This document shows, in pieces, positions 1,113 through 18,536 of a stretch of 24,761 nucleotides of DNA (its first letter is position 1; each line of letters begins with the position of its first letter). Location: positions 1 to 24,761 of the forward strand of contig JAHLVW010000056.1 of NCBI GenBank assembly GCA_019058275.1. The letters are read 5' to 3'. Both the position numbers and the translations under genes were made by a program. The notes under the pieces are model-generated. The model was not told the DNA's origin, did no database searches, and saw only the letters and a program-made list of their open reading frames with translations. Source of the DNA: Candidatus Heimdallarchaeota archaeon. GTDB lineage: Archaea; Asgardarchaeota; Heimdallarchaeia; JABLTI01.

Positions 1113-1658
1113 TTGATATCTGAATTTGCGGGTTATCTATTATCAGGAAATGAGGGAGATTCATTTGTACATATTGTACATAATGGCTTTATGAAAGCAA
1201 AAAAAAGAATATGGTTTACAAGTGCAAAAGTAACCGATTTTATGATTCCTAATCCGAAAACAAAAGAAGCATTTCAATTTTCACAACGACTCTATCAGTT
1301 AGCAAAACGCGGTATTAAAATTAAGTTCATACTAGCACCTAAAGAAAGAGAAAAAAATTTTTATCAAAAACTAAAAGATGTAGAAAATATAGAGATTGCT
1401 TTTTGTTACAATATGCATATGAAAGTCATACTTATAGATTCAACTTGGCTTTATTTTAGTTCAGCTAATCTTACTGGAGCAGGATTAGGATCAAGAACAA
1501 GAGACGGACGTAATAATTTCGAAATTGGAACAATTACAATTGATCAAAAAGCTATTGAACTTGTCGAACTTTTATTACAAGACATTTGGATTGGAAGTAA
1601 ATGTGAAAATTGTTATCAGAAACAAAAAGGTTATTGTAAAGGGATAGAAATGAGATAA
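1113..1658 (+). CDS. Phospholipase D-like (single HKD) protein, putative nuclease, paralogue A, with C-terminal CxxC-x7-C
   Basis: HMKVILID (HxKx4D), SANLT and NNFEIG motifs. Start moved from 1023 to TTG 1113 because of GGTGA at 1101-1105 and alignment with paralogue B. Confidence 0.9.
   Translation: MISEFAGYLLSGNEGDSFVHIVHNGFMKAKKRIWFTSAKVTDFMIPNPKTKEAFQFSQRLYQLAKRGIKIKFILAPKEREKNFYQKLKDVENIEIAFCYNMHMKVILIDSTWLYFSSANLTGAGLGSRTRDGRNNFEIGTITIDQKAIELVELLLQDIWIGSKCENCYQKQKGYCKGIEMR
1611..1649 (+). repeat. PLD 3'-tail repeat, copy 1 (inside gene A)
   Basis: tgttatcagaaacaaaaaggttattgtaaagggatagaa = CYQKQKGYCKGIE. Confidence 0.9.
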
Positions 1659-1941
1659 TCTAATAATCATGGAAAAATAATATAGAATACTTTCAGTTAA
1701 TCTCTAGGTTTTTACTTTTAAATATAAATTTCTAGAAATTATAATAGAACTTGCCTAGGAGCTGTATATTAATTTGTATAAAGAAATAAATTTAGTAATT
1801 TTGTGAAAGAACACCCAAAAGTAACTATGGGTATAATAATAACTATACTAGTTATCTTTATTCCAATTGCAGGATTAATTGGAAATTAACGAGGAAAATT
1901 TAGGACTTAATACACACCCTTTTTTTGAATACCTGTTAATT

Positions 1942-2139
1942 TCAATCTGTGTTAACTTTGTATATTTTTTCACCTAACTCAAAAGTATCGAAATCACCAC
2001 GTAGAATATCAATTAGCGCGTTCCAACTCCGTCCATAATGCTTGAAAACTGGACAAAGAACTCTTAAAATTTCATCATGGAATTCCGGATGAGAATTAAT
2101 ATTTTTTCCATTTATTGTGAAGATTTTACGTTCGGTAAT
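1942..2139 (-). pseudogene. Barstar-family (ribonuclease inhibitor-like) gene remnant
   Basis: Manual translation: ITERKIFTINGKNINSHPEFHDEILRVLCPVFKHYGRSWNALIDILRGDFDTFELGEKIYKVNTD*. Fits the barstar pattern (IDG..I....F..EI.....YG.N.DAL.D.L). No canonical start (ATT after GAGG) and short. Confidence 0.65.
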
Positions 2140-2360
2140 TATAAATTCCTCATTATCATGAGATTTTTTAAAGTTACTACTCTGAAATAAATATCATAAC
2201 TCCTTACTTTGATTCTTTTATATATCTCCTATAAAATCAAGAAAAACAATTTTCTAAGCGTAGTCGATTATTAATGCTGTATTATCTATGAATTAAACAA
2301 TTAGCAATTAAATTAATAGAAAAAAAACTAATTTAGTTAATTAAAAGTATTTTATAATAA

Positions 2361-2395
2361 GAAAAAACCTTTAAAAGGAATGAAACGATTTCATT
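2361..2395 (+). promoter_or_regulatory. BRE/TATA-like element followed by palindrome AATGAAA-cga-TTTCATT upstream of the FG-GAP gene
   Basis: gaaaaaacctttaaaa at 2361-2376; perfect 7-bp inverted repeat at 2379-2395. Confidence 0.4.
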
Positions 2396-2458
2396 AGTTG
2401 CATTTTTTTTAGAAATATTCTATTTGGGAAATTAACTAAATCTAATTGGTGAGATTGA

Positions 2459-5277
2459 ATGAATATAAAAACTAAGGTGGTAATAGTTGGGTTACTACTA
2501 AATCTATTTTGTAGTAGTTTGTGTATGAGTATTGGCAAAAGCATTATTGTAAGCAATAAAGAGATATCCACTAGCACTGAATATGTAAGTGATAAAGCGG
2601 TAGAAGAACCTATAATTCTTGACGGAACAATAACTGATTATTATGCGAATGGCGAAACATTGACTAGGGGGAGTAGCACAAATCCACTTCCTACTGAAAT
2701 AAGTACTAATTCGCATCCACTCACAAAAAATGACTATCTGTTAATAAAATTGGAGGAAATAGCTGCTCTTCCAAACGAACCAGACCAAGGGTGGGTTTAT
2801 GATGATGTAGGGGAGAATTTCTCTGCAGTTAATGACCTTTTTAGCGAACATCAACTCTATGAGAACTTATGGGGAGAATTTAGTACAGCTTATTCAACAT
2901 TACATTCAGATTATCTATTTCGTTTACCATGGGGTTATGGGGGATTTACAAGTGATATAGCTACAGGTGATGTTGATGGGGATGGTCTAGATGAAGTGAT
3001 AGTTGCTACAGATGATGATTATCTTGAAATTTATGATGACGCAAACAATAATTACTTTAAGGGATCAATTCTATTTGAAAATCTTCCAGAACCAGTCAAT
3101 GATAATTTAGGTTACAACGCTTCAGTCTGGAAAATTGACTTATTGAAAACAATAGCTGTGGGTGATGTGGATGGAGATGGCATAGATGAAATTGCTATTG
3201 TACGTTCTTTCTTAAGTGGAACAATTGAATGGTGGTGGAATATTTGGGAAAATAGATATGAACTAAGTGAATTTGATTTATCGCTAACAATTCGTCTATG
3301 GGTCTTTGATGTATTAGAATGGGATTTTATTGGAGCAGGTATTAATTTTATCACAACAAACATCACAAATTGGTGGTCATATACTCAACACACCCATCAA
3401 GATATTAATCTTTCAATGGAACCAGAAGTTGCTTTGGGTGATGTGGATGGGGATGGATTAGATGAAATTATTATAGGATACTGTTTTGGTATATATCCTT
3501 CGGCGGAGATAGTAAGTGATAGTGATATTCATATTTTTGATGATTTTAACCACTCATTTGCTAGGATTTGGGATAAGGATCTTGAATTTGATTGCCAATA
3601 TCCTAAAAATGAATTTAGTTATTTTCTCCATGATATTGATATAGTCTGTGGCGATTTTGACGGAGATAAAAAAGATGAGATAGCATTTGCTGCTATTCCC
3701 TATAATGGTTATGATTGTGAAGGTGCATTGCTTATAATTGATGATTCTGTTATGGGTATATTGGGCCAATATGGTGAAGTAGCAGAGTTTAGATCTGGAG
3801 ATCATGATATTGCTTGGCAACAACGAATACCAATTGCATGTGGAGATATAGATGGTGACGGTAGAGACGAGATAGGATTAGTGAGATCTTTATCGGGACT
3901 GCAACTAAGGGAACTGTTTATCTATGAATTTTCCCAAGGTAATTATACGCTAAGAAACTCTTTTAACTCTTCTGATTGGGAGTTTCTTGATTTCATTTTT
4001 ACAATGGGTGATGTAGATTGCGATGGGTTAGCTGAACTGGTTTTTTCAGGACGATATGGTAACTATGTTGTTGATGATGCAAATGCAGGATTTACTCATA
4101 TCATGAATAAAACAGCTGGAAACTTAGGATTAGTTGCTTGCGGTGATTTTGATGGGGATGGTATGCGGTTGAAGTATACTGGTGAAAATTGGAGAAAACT
4201 GCCCCACCTGGCTTGATAGTTGCATTAGCTGCTCCTCCAGTTTATACTGGTATAATACAAAATTATGACTGGAGCTGGTCAGCTTTTGGAAAAGCAGCAA
4301 GCACTAGCACTGCAAATACTACTGAAGTTGGTACTACAGTAAGTTCAACTATTTCATTCAAACAATCAATTAGCTATTATATTGAATTTTTTAGTTTTTC
4401 GTGGAGTCGTACTTTTGGAAGGGAATTTACTCTAACGAATACGAAAATAAAAACAGCAGTTCAAGAAATTAGTTATTCCTCTGGTTGTTGGATAGATTCG
4501 GTTATTTATCATTTAACTGATTATCAATCTTATAAATATGAAATAACTCATCACCCTTTTAATACTACTCTCATAGGCCAGTTCATAACTCTAAATATAC
4601 CCTATCCGCCCAGTATTATGAAAACTACCTTGGATTATTTTGACCCACACTATGATCAAACAGTTCGTTTAGAAACATTTAATCATACAATTGGTCAACC
4701 ATGGACTTATCCTGCTAGAAATGAAACTTCTAATATAGCATCCGAATGCTTGACTTCTGGAGAACCAATCTCAGTTGGACAAGGTACTGGAAATAATTTA
4801 GTGACAATTAAAATCGAAGAATTAAGCGAATATGGTATCACAGATACGCATTTTTCTGACTATTCAGCAGGAGTGGCTTATTTTGGATTAGGATTAAGTT
4901 ATAGTGAAGGGACTTCAAACTCAAAATGTTATGAAATTTCTATGAGTACATCCTGTATTTATGAGGGTAGTGTGGGAGATATAAGAAATGAAGCAACATT
5001 TGAAGAACTCCAATATTCTTTTGGTATCTTTATCTATTATGTAACACACTCGGATGGTTTTACCTATCAAGTGATTAATTATTACGTTGAAGGTGCCAAA
5101 CCTTATTATCCAGCTAATATCAAAGTCTTCTTCTTAAATAACTGGAAGTGGCTAACAGGTGTTGGTGGAGGAATTGTTGGATTAGCAATAATTATACCCA
5201 CAAGTGTTGCTTTGGTCAAACGAGGAAAAGCAAAACCAAAAACAAAGAAAAAACCTACAACAAAAACCGCTAAATGA
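2459..5277 (+). CDS. Secreted, C-terminally membrane-anchored FG-GAP/VCBS-repeat protein, split into 2459-4216 and 4189-5277 by a single-base frameshift near 4195
   Basis: N-terminal signal-like segment; seven GD(V/F/I)D(G/C)D-type Ca-binding repeats. Adding one A to the A4 run in ggagaaaact joins the two ORFs (W-R-K-T-A-P-P). C-terminal TM helix followed by a Lys-rich tail. Confidence 0.85.
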
Positions 5278-17914: not shown

Positions 17915-17997
17915 TACCTAGTTATCTATTACTAATTTATGATTTAGTTATATAAAACAATAACTACTTACAATTTCTGTTACATTCCTTTGTCATA

Positions 17998-18039
17998 TGT
18001 AATCAAAGATAGAAAGGATATTGCAAAGGATTAGAATAA
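17998..18039 (+). repeat. PLD 3'-tail repeat, copy 5 (isolated, decayed)
   Basis: tgtaatcaaagatagaaaggatattgcaaaggattagaataa = CNQR*KGYCKGLE*. Confidence 0.85.
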
Positions 18040-18064
18040 TAGGTTTTTATGAAGAATAAGTTTT

Positions 18065-18451
18065 TTATTCATATGGAAGCTTTGTTTGCAAGATATTTGC
18101 AAAGATTCCCAAAGCAGTATCTCTTGAGACAGACTTCATTTTTTTGGTAATCTCTTTGTAAAGATTCTTCAATTTCTCGGTAGTTAGAAGAAAGTTATCT
18201 TTATTTTCGATATAACCCAATTTCAATAAACGATCAATTCCGTCTAGAAGTTCATCATCATTGAAAATCGCATGATTTATGAAATCACCTGCAAAAATAA
18301 TGTGGTAGAGATTCTTGTATTTGGTCAATTGTTCAGAGAAAATCATTTTTTTGTAAGTCCTAGGAATATCTTTATTTTCAATACTTTGAGCCAGATGAAT
18401 GGATGCTAGTACCCAAACGCCAGTCCAATCATAATTCTTTCTTTCAGACAT
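18065..18451 (-). CDS. Hypothetical protein, possibly winged-helix fold
   Basis: 128-aa ORF; W(V/I)L.SI...I..GD.INHAI...E....I.RL...GYI pattern seen in uncharacterised proteins. Confidence 0.7.
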   Translation of the reverse strand: MSERKNYDWTGVWVLASIHLAQSIENKDIPRTYKKMIFSEQLTKYKNLYHIIFAGDFINHAIFNDDELLDGIDRLLKLGYIENKDNFLLTTEKLKNLYKEITKKMKSVSRDTALGIFANILQTKLPYE

Positions 18452-18497
18452 ATTGATTCATTTTTCTTCTGTTGCTTAATATTTTTTCTGATATTGC

Positions 18498-18536
18498 TGT
18501 TATCAAAAACAGAAAGGATATTGAAATGAAATAAAA
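18498..18536 (+). repeat. PLD 3'-tail repeat, copy 6 (isolated, decayed; right island boundary)
   Basis: tgttatcaaaaacagaaaggatattgaaatgaaataaaa = CYQKQKGY*NEIK; tatcaaaaacagaaaggatattg is identical to copy 4. Confidence 0.85.

Follow-up and report, generated by a model that had tools for sequence, protein, structure and literature searches.

We analyzed a 24,761-bp stretch of DNA (the window) that is the entire contig C47 of a Heimdallarchaeota metagenome-assembled genome (MAG; G000, 4.12 Mb, 32% GC, 118 contigs, completeness 92.8%, contamination 6.8%). The window appears to hold a flexible island at one fixed chromosomal locus of a Heimdallarchaeota genus, headed by a gene for a single-HKD nuclease of the PLD type. 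Copies of the last ~40–80 bp of this PLD gene (the tail), all pointing one way, alternate with blocks that each contain one to five cargo genes. We demonstrate the tail repeats, their wide recurrence among relatives, one tail-by-tail deletion, the modularity of the cassettes and the mosaic structure of PLD genes. We further propose, with a probability of about one half, that the conserved 3′ ends of PLD genes supply portable homology, which host recombination uses for unequal or Campbell-type crossovers.

A repeat search found six direct copies of the last ~42 nt of the PLD gene, all on the plus strand, at 1611–1652, 5572–5613, 8709–8750, 17066–17107, 17998–18039 and 18498–18539, with successive copies spaced 3961, 3137, 8357, 932 and 500 nt apart. 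The repeated sequences are 42–100 nt long and imperfect, with exact stretches of 11–26 nt. When an nhmmer profile of the six copies was run against the 4.12-Mb assembly, it recovered the copies themselves (E 3e-9 to 2e-6) and one more on contig C13 (E 2e-4), all other matches having E > 4. These searches confirm the six same-strand copies reported in a preliminary description of the window, and show that, apart from the copy on C13, the tail is specific to the locus. The copies at 1611 and 8709 are the 3′ ends of intact PLDc_2 genes (PF13091, E 1e-12), and the copy at 17066 ends a longer stub. The other three copies (5572, 17998 and 18498) stand alone; with the Cys codon at model position 461, they begin at 460, 461 and 455, respectively. 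As previously noted, the two most distal copies carry nonsense changes, an in-frame TAG at 17998 and an in-frame TGA at 18498, the latter copy being the most degenerate of the six. The first gene after a tail was also said to lie usually on the opposite strand; this holds for four of the six tails, where that gene faces the PLD gene.

A fixed locus and its head gene in related genomes

The PLD gene was sought in 40 related genomes and is present in six of the ten other genomes of the genus, several of which hold multiple full copies and fragments on a single contig. At least eight arrays were compared, drawn from MAGs of the genus, the bin HMA_bin2.96 (HMA bin) and the metagenome contigs L060, L062 and L068, the MAGs being 64–93% complete. 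The tail architecture recurs in G001, G004, G008, G009, G010, the HMA bin and contigs L062 and L068. A tail alignment comprised 43 tails, 37 on 12 oriented contigs plus those on L060 and L062, and orientation was uniform within each oriented contig (37/37 tails). An intact PLD gene stands at the head of every array with a visible head. The position of the locus is likewise fixed: MFS and PLD genes mark its left side, and its right side consists of flavodoxin, rhodanese and dehydrogenase genes. Contig L060 displays a near-empty state consisting of PLD, TusA, flavodoxin and rhodanese genes, in which TusA replaces the aldo/keto reductase gene of the window.

Cargo in the other arrays includes HEPN/MNT and TumE toxin-antitoxin genes, genes for LVIVD, LRR and FG-GAP surface proteins, and genes for arginase, kinases, methyltransferases, hydrolases and PadR. 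The locus thus has the features of a flexible island, namely conserved flanks, content varying among close relatives and mosaic anchor genes. The proposal that the oldest cassettes are the distal ones was not supported: the proximal block 1 and the distal block 4 are both widely shared and blocks 2 and 3 are unique, and cassette age does not follow position. A search of the literature found no description of this locus in the papers covered.

Two other contigs of the same MAG touch on the locus. Contig C23 (3.5 kb) carries an MFS gene and a 112-aa open reading frame (ORF), together with a PLD gene of 50% identity of which only the 5′ end lies on the contig, and C13 (6.4 kb) has a 94% identical overlap with the right end of the window and a further PLD stub amid ABC-transporter genes. 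Together they are probably the version of the locus from a second, related population in the same bin.

PLD1 (1113–1658, plus strand; PF13091, E 9.5e-13) is the intact, Nuc/NucT/DrmC-like head gene, with a likely ATG start at 1113 in an ORF open from 1023. The second intact gene, PLD2 (8181–8750, plus strand; PF13091), encodes a protein 64% identical to that of PLD1. The PLD protein has ~180 aa and one HKD motif, and a seven-sequence alignment shows both the HxK...D...GSAN motif (H102, K104, D109, S117-A118-N119) and a C-terminal CxxCYQKxKGYC motif to be invariant. The HxK(x)4D...GSxN motif, a single HKD copy, a length within ~150–190 aa and a Nuc-like fold in a model of pLDDT 64 place the head gene among the single-HKD nucleases. 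PLD1 matches the DrmC profile of PADLOC (E 1e-9, positions 48–150 of 153), and the protein also matches the DpdK profile (E 6e-5 for PLD2). The top Foldseek match of the PLD1 model is NucT (6ehi, E 7e-7), and the other closest folds to this model of pLDDT 64 are Nuc, Zucchini and PLD3. Because of these profile and fold matches, the protein is predicted to be a small Nuc-type nuclease, a kind frequent in defense systems. Distant homologs in three other genomes, with ~30% identity and the same C-terminal Cys motif, are single-copy genes with no tail repeats within 20 kb on each side, and we rejected them as independent arrays.

Within the tail lies a 19-nt core, AGAAAGGATATTGTAAAGG; in 12 genomes of the family, it occurs on no contigs other than those with arrays. 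The core is the most conserved 20-mer of the PLD gene (94% column identity compared with a mean of 76%) and also its longest conserved run. No tail copy was found outside arrays in the 12 genomes, in IMG/VR or on mobile-element-like metagenome contigs. Three IMG/VR matches to an 18-nt core were discarded as chance matches in unrelated coding sequence, and six of the 12 matches in a metagenome scan with a 23-nt degenerate tail were likewise attributed to chance (other frames, 38–42% GC); the remaining matches fell on L060, L062, L065, L067 and L068. Whichever mechanism applies, the core AGAAAGGATATTGTAAAGG can be used as a practical probe for cassettes of this lineage in metagenomes. On its opposite strand the tail contains TTTCTGTTTTTG, and convergent cassette genes stop 18–116 nt away; from its sequence, the minus strand of the tail could act as an oligo-T terminator for these genes.

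Fragments of PLD genes are not limited to tails. The 5′ ends of 30 isolated stubs from eight arrays form a continuum from model position 213 to 474, with clusters at 266–276, 422–433 and 452–461, and 5′ and internal fragments are also scattered through the arrays. Fragment ends form a second cluster at the HKD-motif patch. The shared start at the Cys codon described for the isolated copies is thus true of this window and not of the other arrays, and stub 5′ endpoints are not fixed as had been supposed. A precise 5′ end at the Cys codon or at tail position 13–14 was rejected as a sign of a fixed cut on the grounds that the ends are continuous and the shortest class lies at the detection limit. 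The window also holds a 5′ stub (11053–11218, plus strand) comprising the promoter-proximal region and ~25 codons, identified by tblastn to PLD1 residues 29–53 and matching the PLD 5′ regions of C23, G008 and G009 (blastn). The long 3′ stub (17003–17107, plus strand; ~100 nt, residues ~176–209, model 404–502) is of a sequence type nearest to the PLD genes of the HMA bin. The two stubs are the halves of a third PLD gene split by the NACHT module between them.

Junctions at the tails and away from them

The clearest junction is found in G004, where contig C335 corresponds to the PLD2 region of the window (8043–8743, 98.9% identical) fused directly to 17066–19618 (98.3%), without the 8.3-kb block between the tails at 8709 and 17066. 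The crossover falls inside AAAGGATATTG and maps to tail positions 16–26: the G004 sequence is of PLD2 type through AAAAAATAAAGGATATTG and of the 17066-copy type thereafter. The PLD2 ending KNKGYCQGIE is also present in a PLD gene of G010, and the G004 ending KNKGYC-KGI is a hybrid. Since the shared ending makes the hybrid the derived one, G004 lost the block, and we read the event from these sequences as a tail-by-tail deletion. The preliminary description had inferred an accretion hotspot at the PLD gene. The hotspot is fixed and the tails are recombination joints, but the polarized event is a deletion and not an insertion.

Cassette homology ends within a few nucleotides of tails, and neighbors and order vary between genomes. 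The cassette with a DUF6036 gene (window 17037–18037) is 85% identical to positions 4456–5453 of contig HMA_c58, where its neighbors differ on both sides and homology stops 2 nt short of the end of the right-hand tail. This cassette also occurs in G004, G009, G010, HMA_c90 and L062, and it stands behind six different left contexts, the joint always being at a tail. Similarly, the tail at 5572 forms one unit with the next gene, for a 122-aa membrane protein; this unit (5571–6137) is 81% identical to HMA_c90 1026–1593, the homology beginning 1 nt before the tail and stopping at the next tail of HMA_c90. In addition, a 597-aa cassette and a HEPN/MNT cassette occur in opposite order in G008 and G010. 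Each of the reordered cassettes retains its right-hand stub and the 3′ part of its left-hand tail, as single crossovers within tails predict.

Other breakpoints lie away from the tail. The PLD gene of G008 is mosaic: over ~400 columns it is of one parental type, and its final ~100 nt are of another. The switch lies ~70–80 nt upstream of the tail and is followed by 22 consecutive informative sites, and therefore could not have been produced by a fixed crossover in the core. In G009, an FG-GAP block stands upstream of the PLD1 ortholog (contig C5, ~24.8–26.5 kb) and is joined at an ATCAATT microhomology. That ortholog is 88% identical, has in-frame stops, ends in CKNCNG and a stop codon, and lacks the tail from about position 6 on; an intact second PLD gene comes next. 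From its sequence the FG-GAP joint plainly looks like an illegitimate rearrangement. Block 1 of the window (positions 2287–5474) is 84–85% identical to sequence in G009 and in G004 contig C164, where the block does not end at tails, and at the right edge, where aldo/keto reductase is exchanged for TusA, no tail bounds the gene on its right. The expectation that relatives would gain or lose cassettes exactly at tails was thus borne out by the 8.3-kb block of G004 and by the modular cassettes, but not by the FG-GAP block of G009 or by the aldo/keto reductase/TusA difference, both unrelated to tails.

Mechanism and competing explanations

We looked for site-specific machinery on the array contigs. 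The earlier observation that the window contains no integrase was upheld and extends to relatives, with no PF00589 integrase on C47 or on the array contigs of G004, G008, G009 and G010 and no recombinase in Pfam scans of ~50 array ORFs. Elsewhere in the genome, G000 encodes six PF00589 proteins, and G008 (90% complete) has one PF00589 match in its entire genome. Folding five tails on both strands (ten folds) gave no attC-like hairpin and no common structure (minimum free energy −1.8 to −5.3 kcal/mol, z −1.55 to +1.54). No dif-like dyad was found in 19 tails, the best arms matching at 6–9 of 11 positions, no better than in shuffles, and at inconsistent positions. An RNA gene as the true att site was rejected, there being no tRNA, tmRNA or other Rfam RNA in the window.

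Under the proposed mechanism, crossovers would be made by the general homologous-recombination machinery of the host, with no dedicated integrase, and would prefer the most conserved patch of diverged paralogs. Junctions indeed fall where diverged paralogs are most alike, because the core is the most conserved stretch and fragment ends also gather at the HKD patch. A crossover between two repeats would delete the intervening DNA, as seen once in G004, and crossovers of non-allelic repeats on two chromosome copies, or of a repeat with an excised circle, would add, duplicate and reorder blocks. Crossing over through a 3′-terminal fragment would regenerate an intact head gene, which would explain why 3′ stubs accumulate and other fragments are rarer. 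New genes would probably first enter a block through illegitimate joins at the level of microhomology.

Several observations weigh against host recombination. The repeats are ~42–80 nt long and only 70–90% alike, making them a poor substrate for classical homologous recombination. About 25 of the 32 PLD fragments with 3′ sequence terminate at the stop codon, which is abutted by unrelated cargo in at least eight different ways, and an edge this sharp on the 3′ side would be expected from a site-specific system. Unequal or Campbell-type crossover moves existing blocks and does not explain new cargo between tails. Isolated stubs keep the core (83–100% at tail positions 10–29), which would also fit a functional site, although the stubs were found through similarity to that core. 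Only a single event is polarized, integrase-bearing helper elements could be unbinned or lost in MAGs that are 64–93% complete, and some tyrosine-recombinase sites show weak dyad symmetry.

Because of the sharp edge at the stop codon, the entry of new cargo and the shortness of the repeats, we retained two readings that invoke a site-specific enzyme. One, possible but unlikely, is accretion by a recombinase acting in trans, with the tail as att site and the integrase gene elsewhere, be it chromosomal or part of an unbinned plasmid or virus; the small blocks would then be cis-mobilizable remnants that lack an integrase, like the cis-mobilizable elements (CIMEs) at fda, the ssrA islands of Dehalococcoides and degenerate tycheposons. 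It accords with the flanking of each unit by direct repeats of a gene 3′ end, the intact head gene, the sharp 3′ edge, small cassettes that travel as units, the G004 crossover within the conserved core and the six PF00589 proteins of G000. Tycheposon islands likewise contain partial-tRNA repeats and degenerate elements (bioRxiv 10.1101/2020.12.28.424599). However, no integrase or integrase fragment occurs on any array contig, G008 has its single PF00589 match despite being 90% complete, the tail is absent outside arrays from the 12 genomes, IMG/VR and mobile-element-like metagenome contigs, and no dyad-symmetric core was found in the tails. A fixed crossover also leaves unexplained the mosaic breakpoints upstream of the core and the fragment ends at the HKD patch, and the target gene is accessory and genus-restricted instead of conserved.

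The other reading, which we regard as very doubtful, is that the PLD nuclease acts as recombinase or nickase of the cassettes: by HKD phosphohistidine chemistry it would nick or exchange strands at the conserved core in the 3′ end of its own gene, in analogy to an integron integrase and attI. HKD enzymes act via covalent intermediates; BfiI carries out transesterification on DNA, and the K4 protein of poxviruses both nicks DNA and joins it. A profile search with the PLD protein gave a weak match (30ie, E 0.11) to a chain whose title reads ‘virion nicking-joining enzyme’, and array contigs yielded no other recombinase. An intact PLD gene heads all arrays with a visible head, and the gene, restricted to the genus, has the same distribution as the arrays. 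This evidence is wholly circumstantial, and the shared distribution is trivial, since each repeat is itself a part of the PLD gene. By fold and family the protein matches ordinary nucleases (NucT, Nuc, Zucchini, PLD3, DrmC, DpdK), the homologs at 30% identity share the C-terminal Cys motif and yet have no repeats nearby, and the mosaic breakpoints off the tail indicate homologous recombination. The PLD superfamily, with its phosphohistidine chemistry, is not known for site-specific recombination in cells.

Stubs might instead be passive relics, that is, decaying duplicates of PLD paralogs with no role in rearrangement, whose boundaries mark the end of coding homology. The variable 5′ ends, the 5′ and internal fragments and the stop codons in distal copies agree with such decay, and stub conservation is no better than that of adjacent cassette DNA: between the window and HMA_c58 the tails around the toxin-antitoxin-like cassette are 71–81% identical and the cassette itself 85%. 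We nevertheless consider this improbable, in view of the G004 deletion crossover inside tails, the cassette joined to six left contexts always at a tail, the two cassettes in opposite order in G008 and G010 with tail parts retained, the strong excess of 3′-terminal fragments and the uniform orientation. An assembly artifact or chimeric contig is hardly credible. It could be suspected because the window is a contig assembled from a metagenome and its bin has 6.8% contamination, C13 and C23 resembling the copy of a second population. Its imperfect repeats (42–100 nt, exact over 11–26 nt) are, however, shorter than the k of 127 or 141 given in the contig names of relatives, so no misjoins are expected in assemblies of that kind, and independent assemblies of at least seven MAGs or metagenomes, produced by different studies, show the same architecture.

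[quoted passage not shown] Tandem accretion is also described for the ssrA islands of Dehalococcoides, at a gene 3′ end (PMC3146451), and for the tycheposon islands of Prochlorococcus, with partial-tRNA repeats (bioRxiv 10.1101/2020.12.28.424599). As in these systems, direct 3′-end repeats separate the units of the PLD arrays, the head gene is intact, the cargo is of defense and niche type, and degenerate units lack mobility genes. The PLD arrays differ in having no integrase or integrase fragment, units as small as 0.46 kb with one gene, a repeat of variable length with no dyad core found, and a target that is genus-restricted and itself multi-copy and mosaic. Aloposons of Heimdallarchaeum (PMC8813620) are unrelated, since they integrate at tRNA genes and carry giant genes.

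Archaeal integrons are reported as enriched in Asgard MAGs (PMC9668308). The PLD locus shares with integrons its small, toxin-antitoxin-rich cassettes, a repeated site, an adjoining conserved gene and an order that varies between genomes. However, it has no IntI, its repeat is coding sequence without an attC-type hairpin, and most cassette genes face the head gene and have their own promoters. Its blocks carry one to five genes in mixed orientation, several being multi-gene, unlike the promoterless, co-oriented, single-ORF cassettes of integrons. The comparison with integrons drawn in the preliminary description therefore breaks down on integrase, site structure and cassette orientation. Modules of the Xer/dif type (IMEX, pdif) are likewise small, recombinase-less and bounded by short site copies, and are moved by a host enzyme, as proposed here for the PLD blocks. 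A dif site has 28 bp, its two inverted arms of ~11 bp being separated by a spacer of 6 bp (PMC2958812), whereas the PLD tail has no 11-6-11 dyad and its copies are all direct and not alternating. The resemblance to an integron is thus superficial, and the features that define integrons and Xer/dif modules are absent from the PLD-tail locus. Flexible islands exchanged by homologous recombination at conserved flanks or repeated paralogs share its fixed locus, conserved flanks, mosaic anchors and differences between near-identical strains; in the PLD island, by contrast, the anchor is repeated inside as short 3′ stubs, and variation is cassette-like and additive and not simple replacement.

Gene acquisition by Asgard archaea is intensely studied, and little is known of the mechanics of their flexible islands. 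The PLD locus offers a testable hotspot at which defense, toxin-antitoxin, surface and metabolic modules are reshuffled without a visible mobility gene. If host recombination is the mechanism, a diverged paralog family would build an integron-like cassette store by leaving behind its conserved 3′ ends; if a recombinase in trans or the nuclease itself is responsible, the locus would represent a new site-specific system in archaea.

Blocks and flanks of the window

The left flank is a conserved MFS transporter gene (1–880, minus strand; PF07690, E 3e-12), orthologs of which adjoin the PLD locus in G009 and G010 and on contig C23. In the window this gene consists of two overlapping ORFs (1–297 and 239–880) and leaves the contig, and relatives have a single ORF of 417–450 aa; the window gene may be frameshifted. 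Block 1 (1653–5571) begins with 634 nt of unique sequence, followed by an FG-GAP surface-protein gene (2459–5277, plus strand; PF01839/PF13517) and a 75-aa ORF fragment (5274–5501). The FG-GAP gene is divided into two overlapping ORFs (585 and 362 aa), its G009 ortholog being a single ORF of 916 aa. Comparison with this ortholog by tblastn places the frame switch at ~4192–4195, beside a C4 run; the switch reflects a genuine frameshift or else an error in sequencing. The 75-aa ORF was considered as an N-terminal fragment of HsdS and rejected, Pfam giving no confirmation even when the longer G009 version was included.

Block 2 (5614–8708) comprises the 122-aa membrane-protein gene (5730–6098, minus strand), a 295-aa ORF, an Nmad3-domain gene (7299–8111, plus strand; PF18754, E 4e-18) and the body of PLD2. 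No counterpart of the block 2 ORFs was found in the other arrays compared. The 295-aa ORF and the Nmad3-domain gene immediately precede PLD2 and share its strand (6458–8750, plus strand), and, together with the DpdK match of PLD2, they hint at a DNA-modification or restriction-type module. Block 3 (8751–17065), the 8.3-kb block absent from G004, has all its genes on the minus strand. These are a PDDEXK_4 gene (8856–10214; PADLOC candidate PDC-S26), a 156-aa ORF, a 1534-aa NERD-NACHT gene (11230–15834), whose product combines a NACHT NTPase with a NERD domain at the N terminus, and a 266-aa ORF of no family. The last two (11230–16690) form a candidate STAND-type defense module within the split third PLD gene.

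Cassette 4 (17108–17997, minus strand) is the DUF6036 cassette, a toxin-antitoxin-like pair (PF19502) of a DUF6036 nucleotidyltransferase gene (17125–17700) and a 73-aa partner gene (17693–17914). Cassette 5 (18040–18497, minus strand) holds a single 128-aa ORF (18065–18451) with no assigned function, shared only with G004 C335. The last variable unit is the aldo/keto reductase gene (18657–19628, plus strand; PF00248, E 6e-72), which has no right-hand tail. The right flank starts with flavodoxin and rhodanese genes (19623–20519, minus strand), 79.5% identical at the nucleotide level to L060 2229–3142. Beyond them, three tandem paralogs (304, 323 and 306 aa; 21726–24599, minus strand) with DNA 70–80% identical look, from their sequence, like zinc-type alcohol dehydrogenase/quinone oxidoreductase genes, and in G008 the same dehydrogenase-like triplet lies directly behind the last tail.

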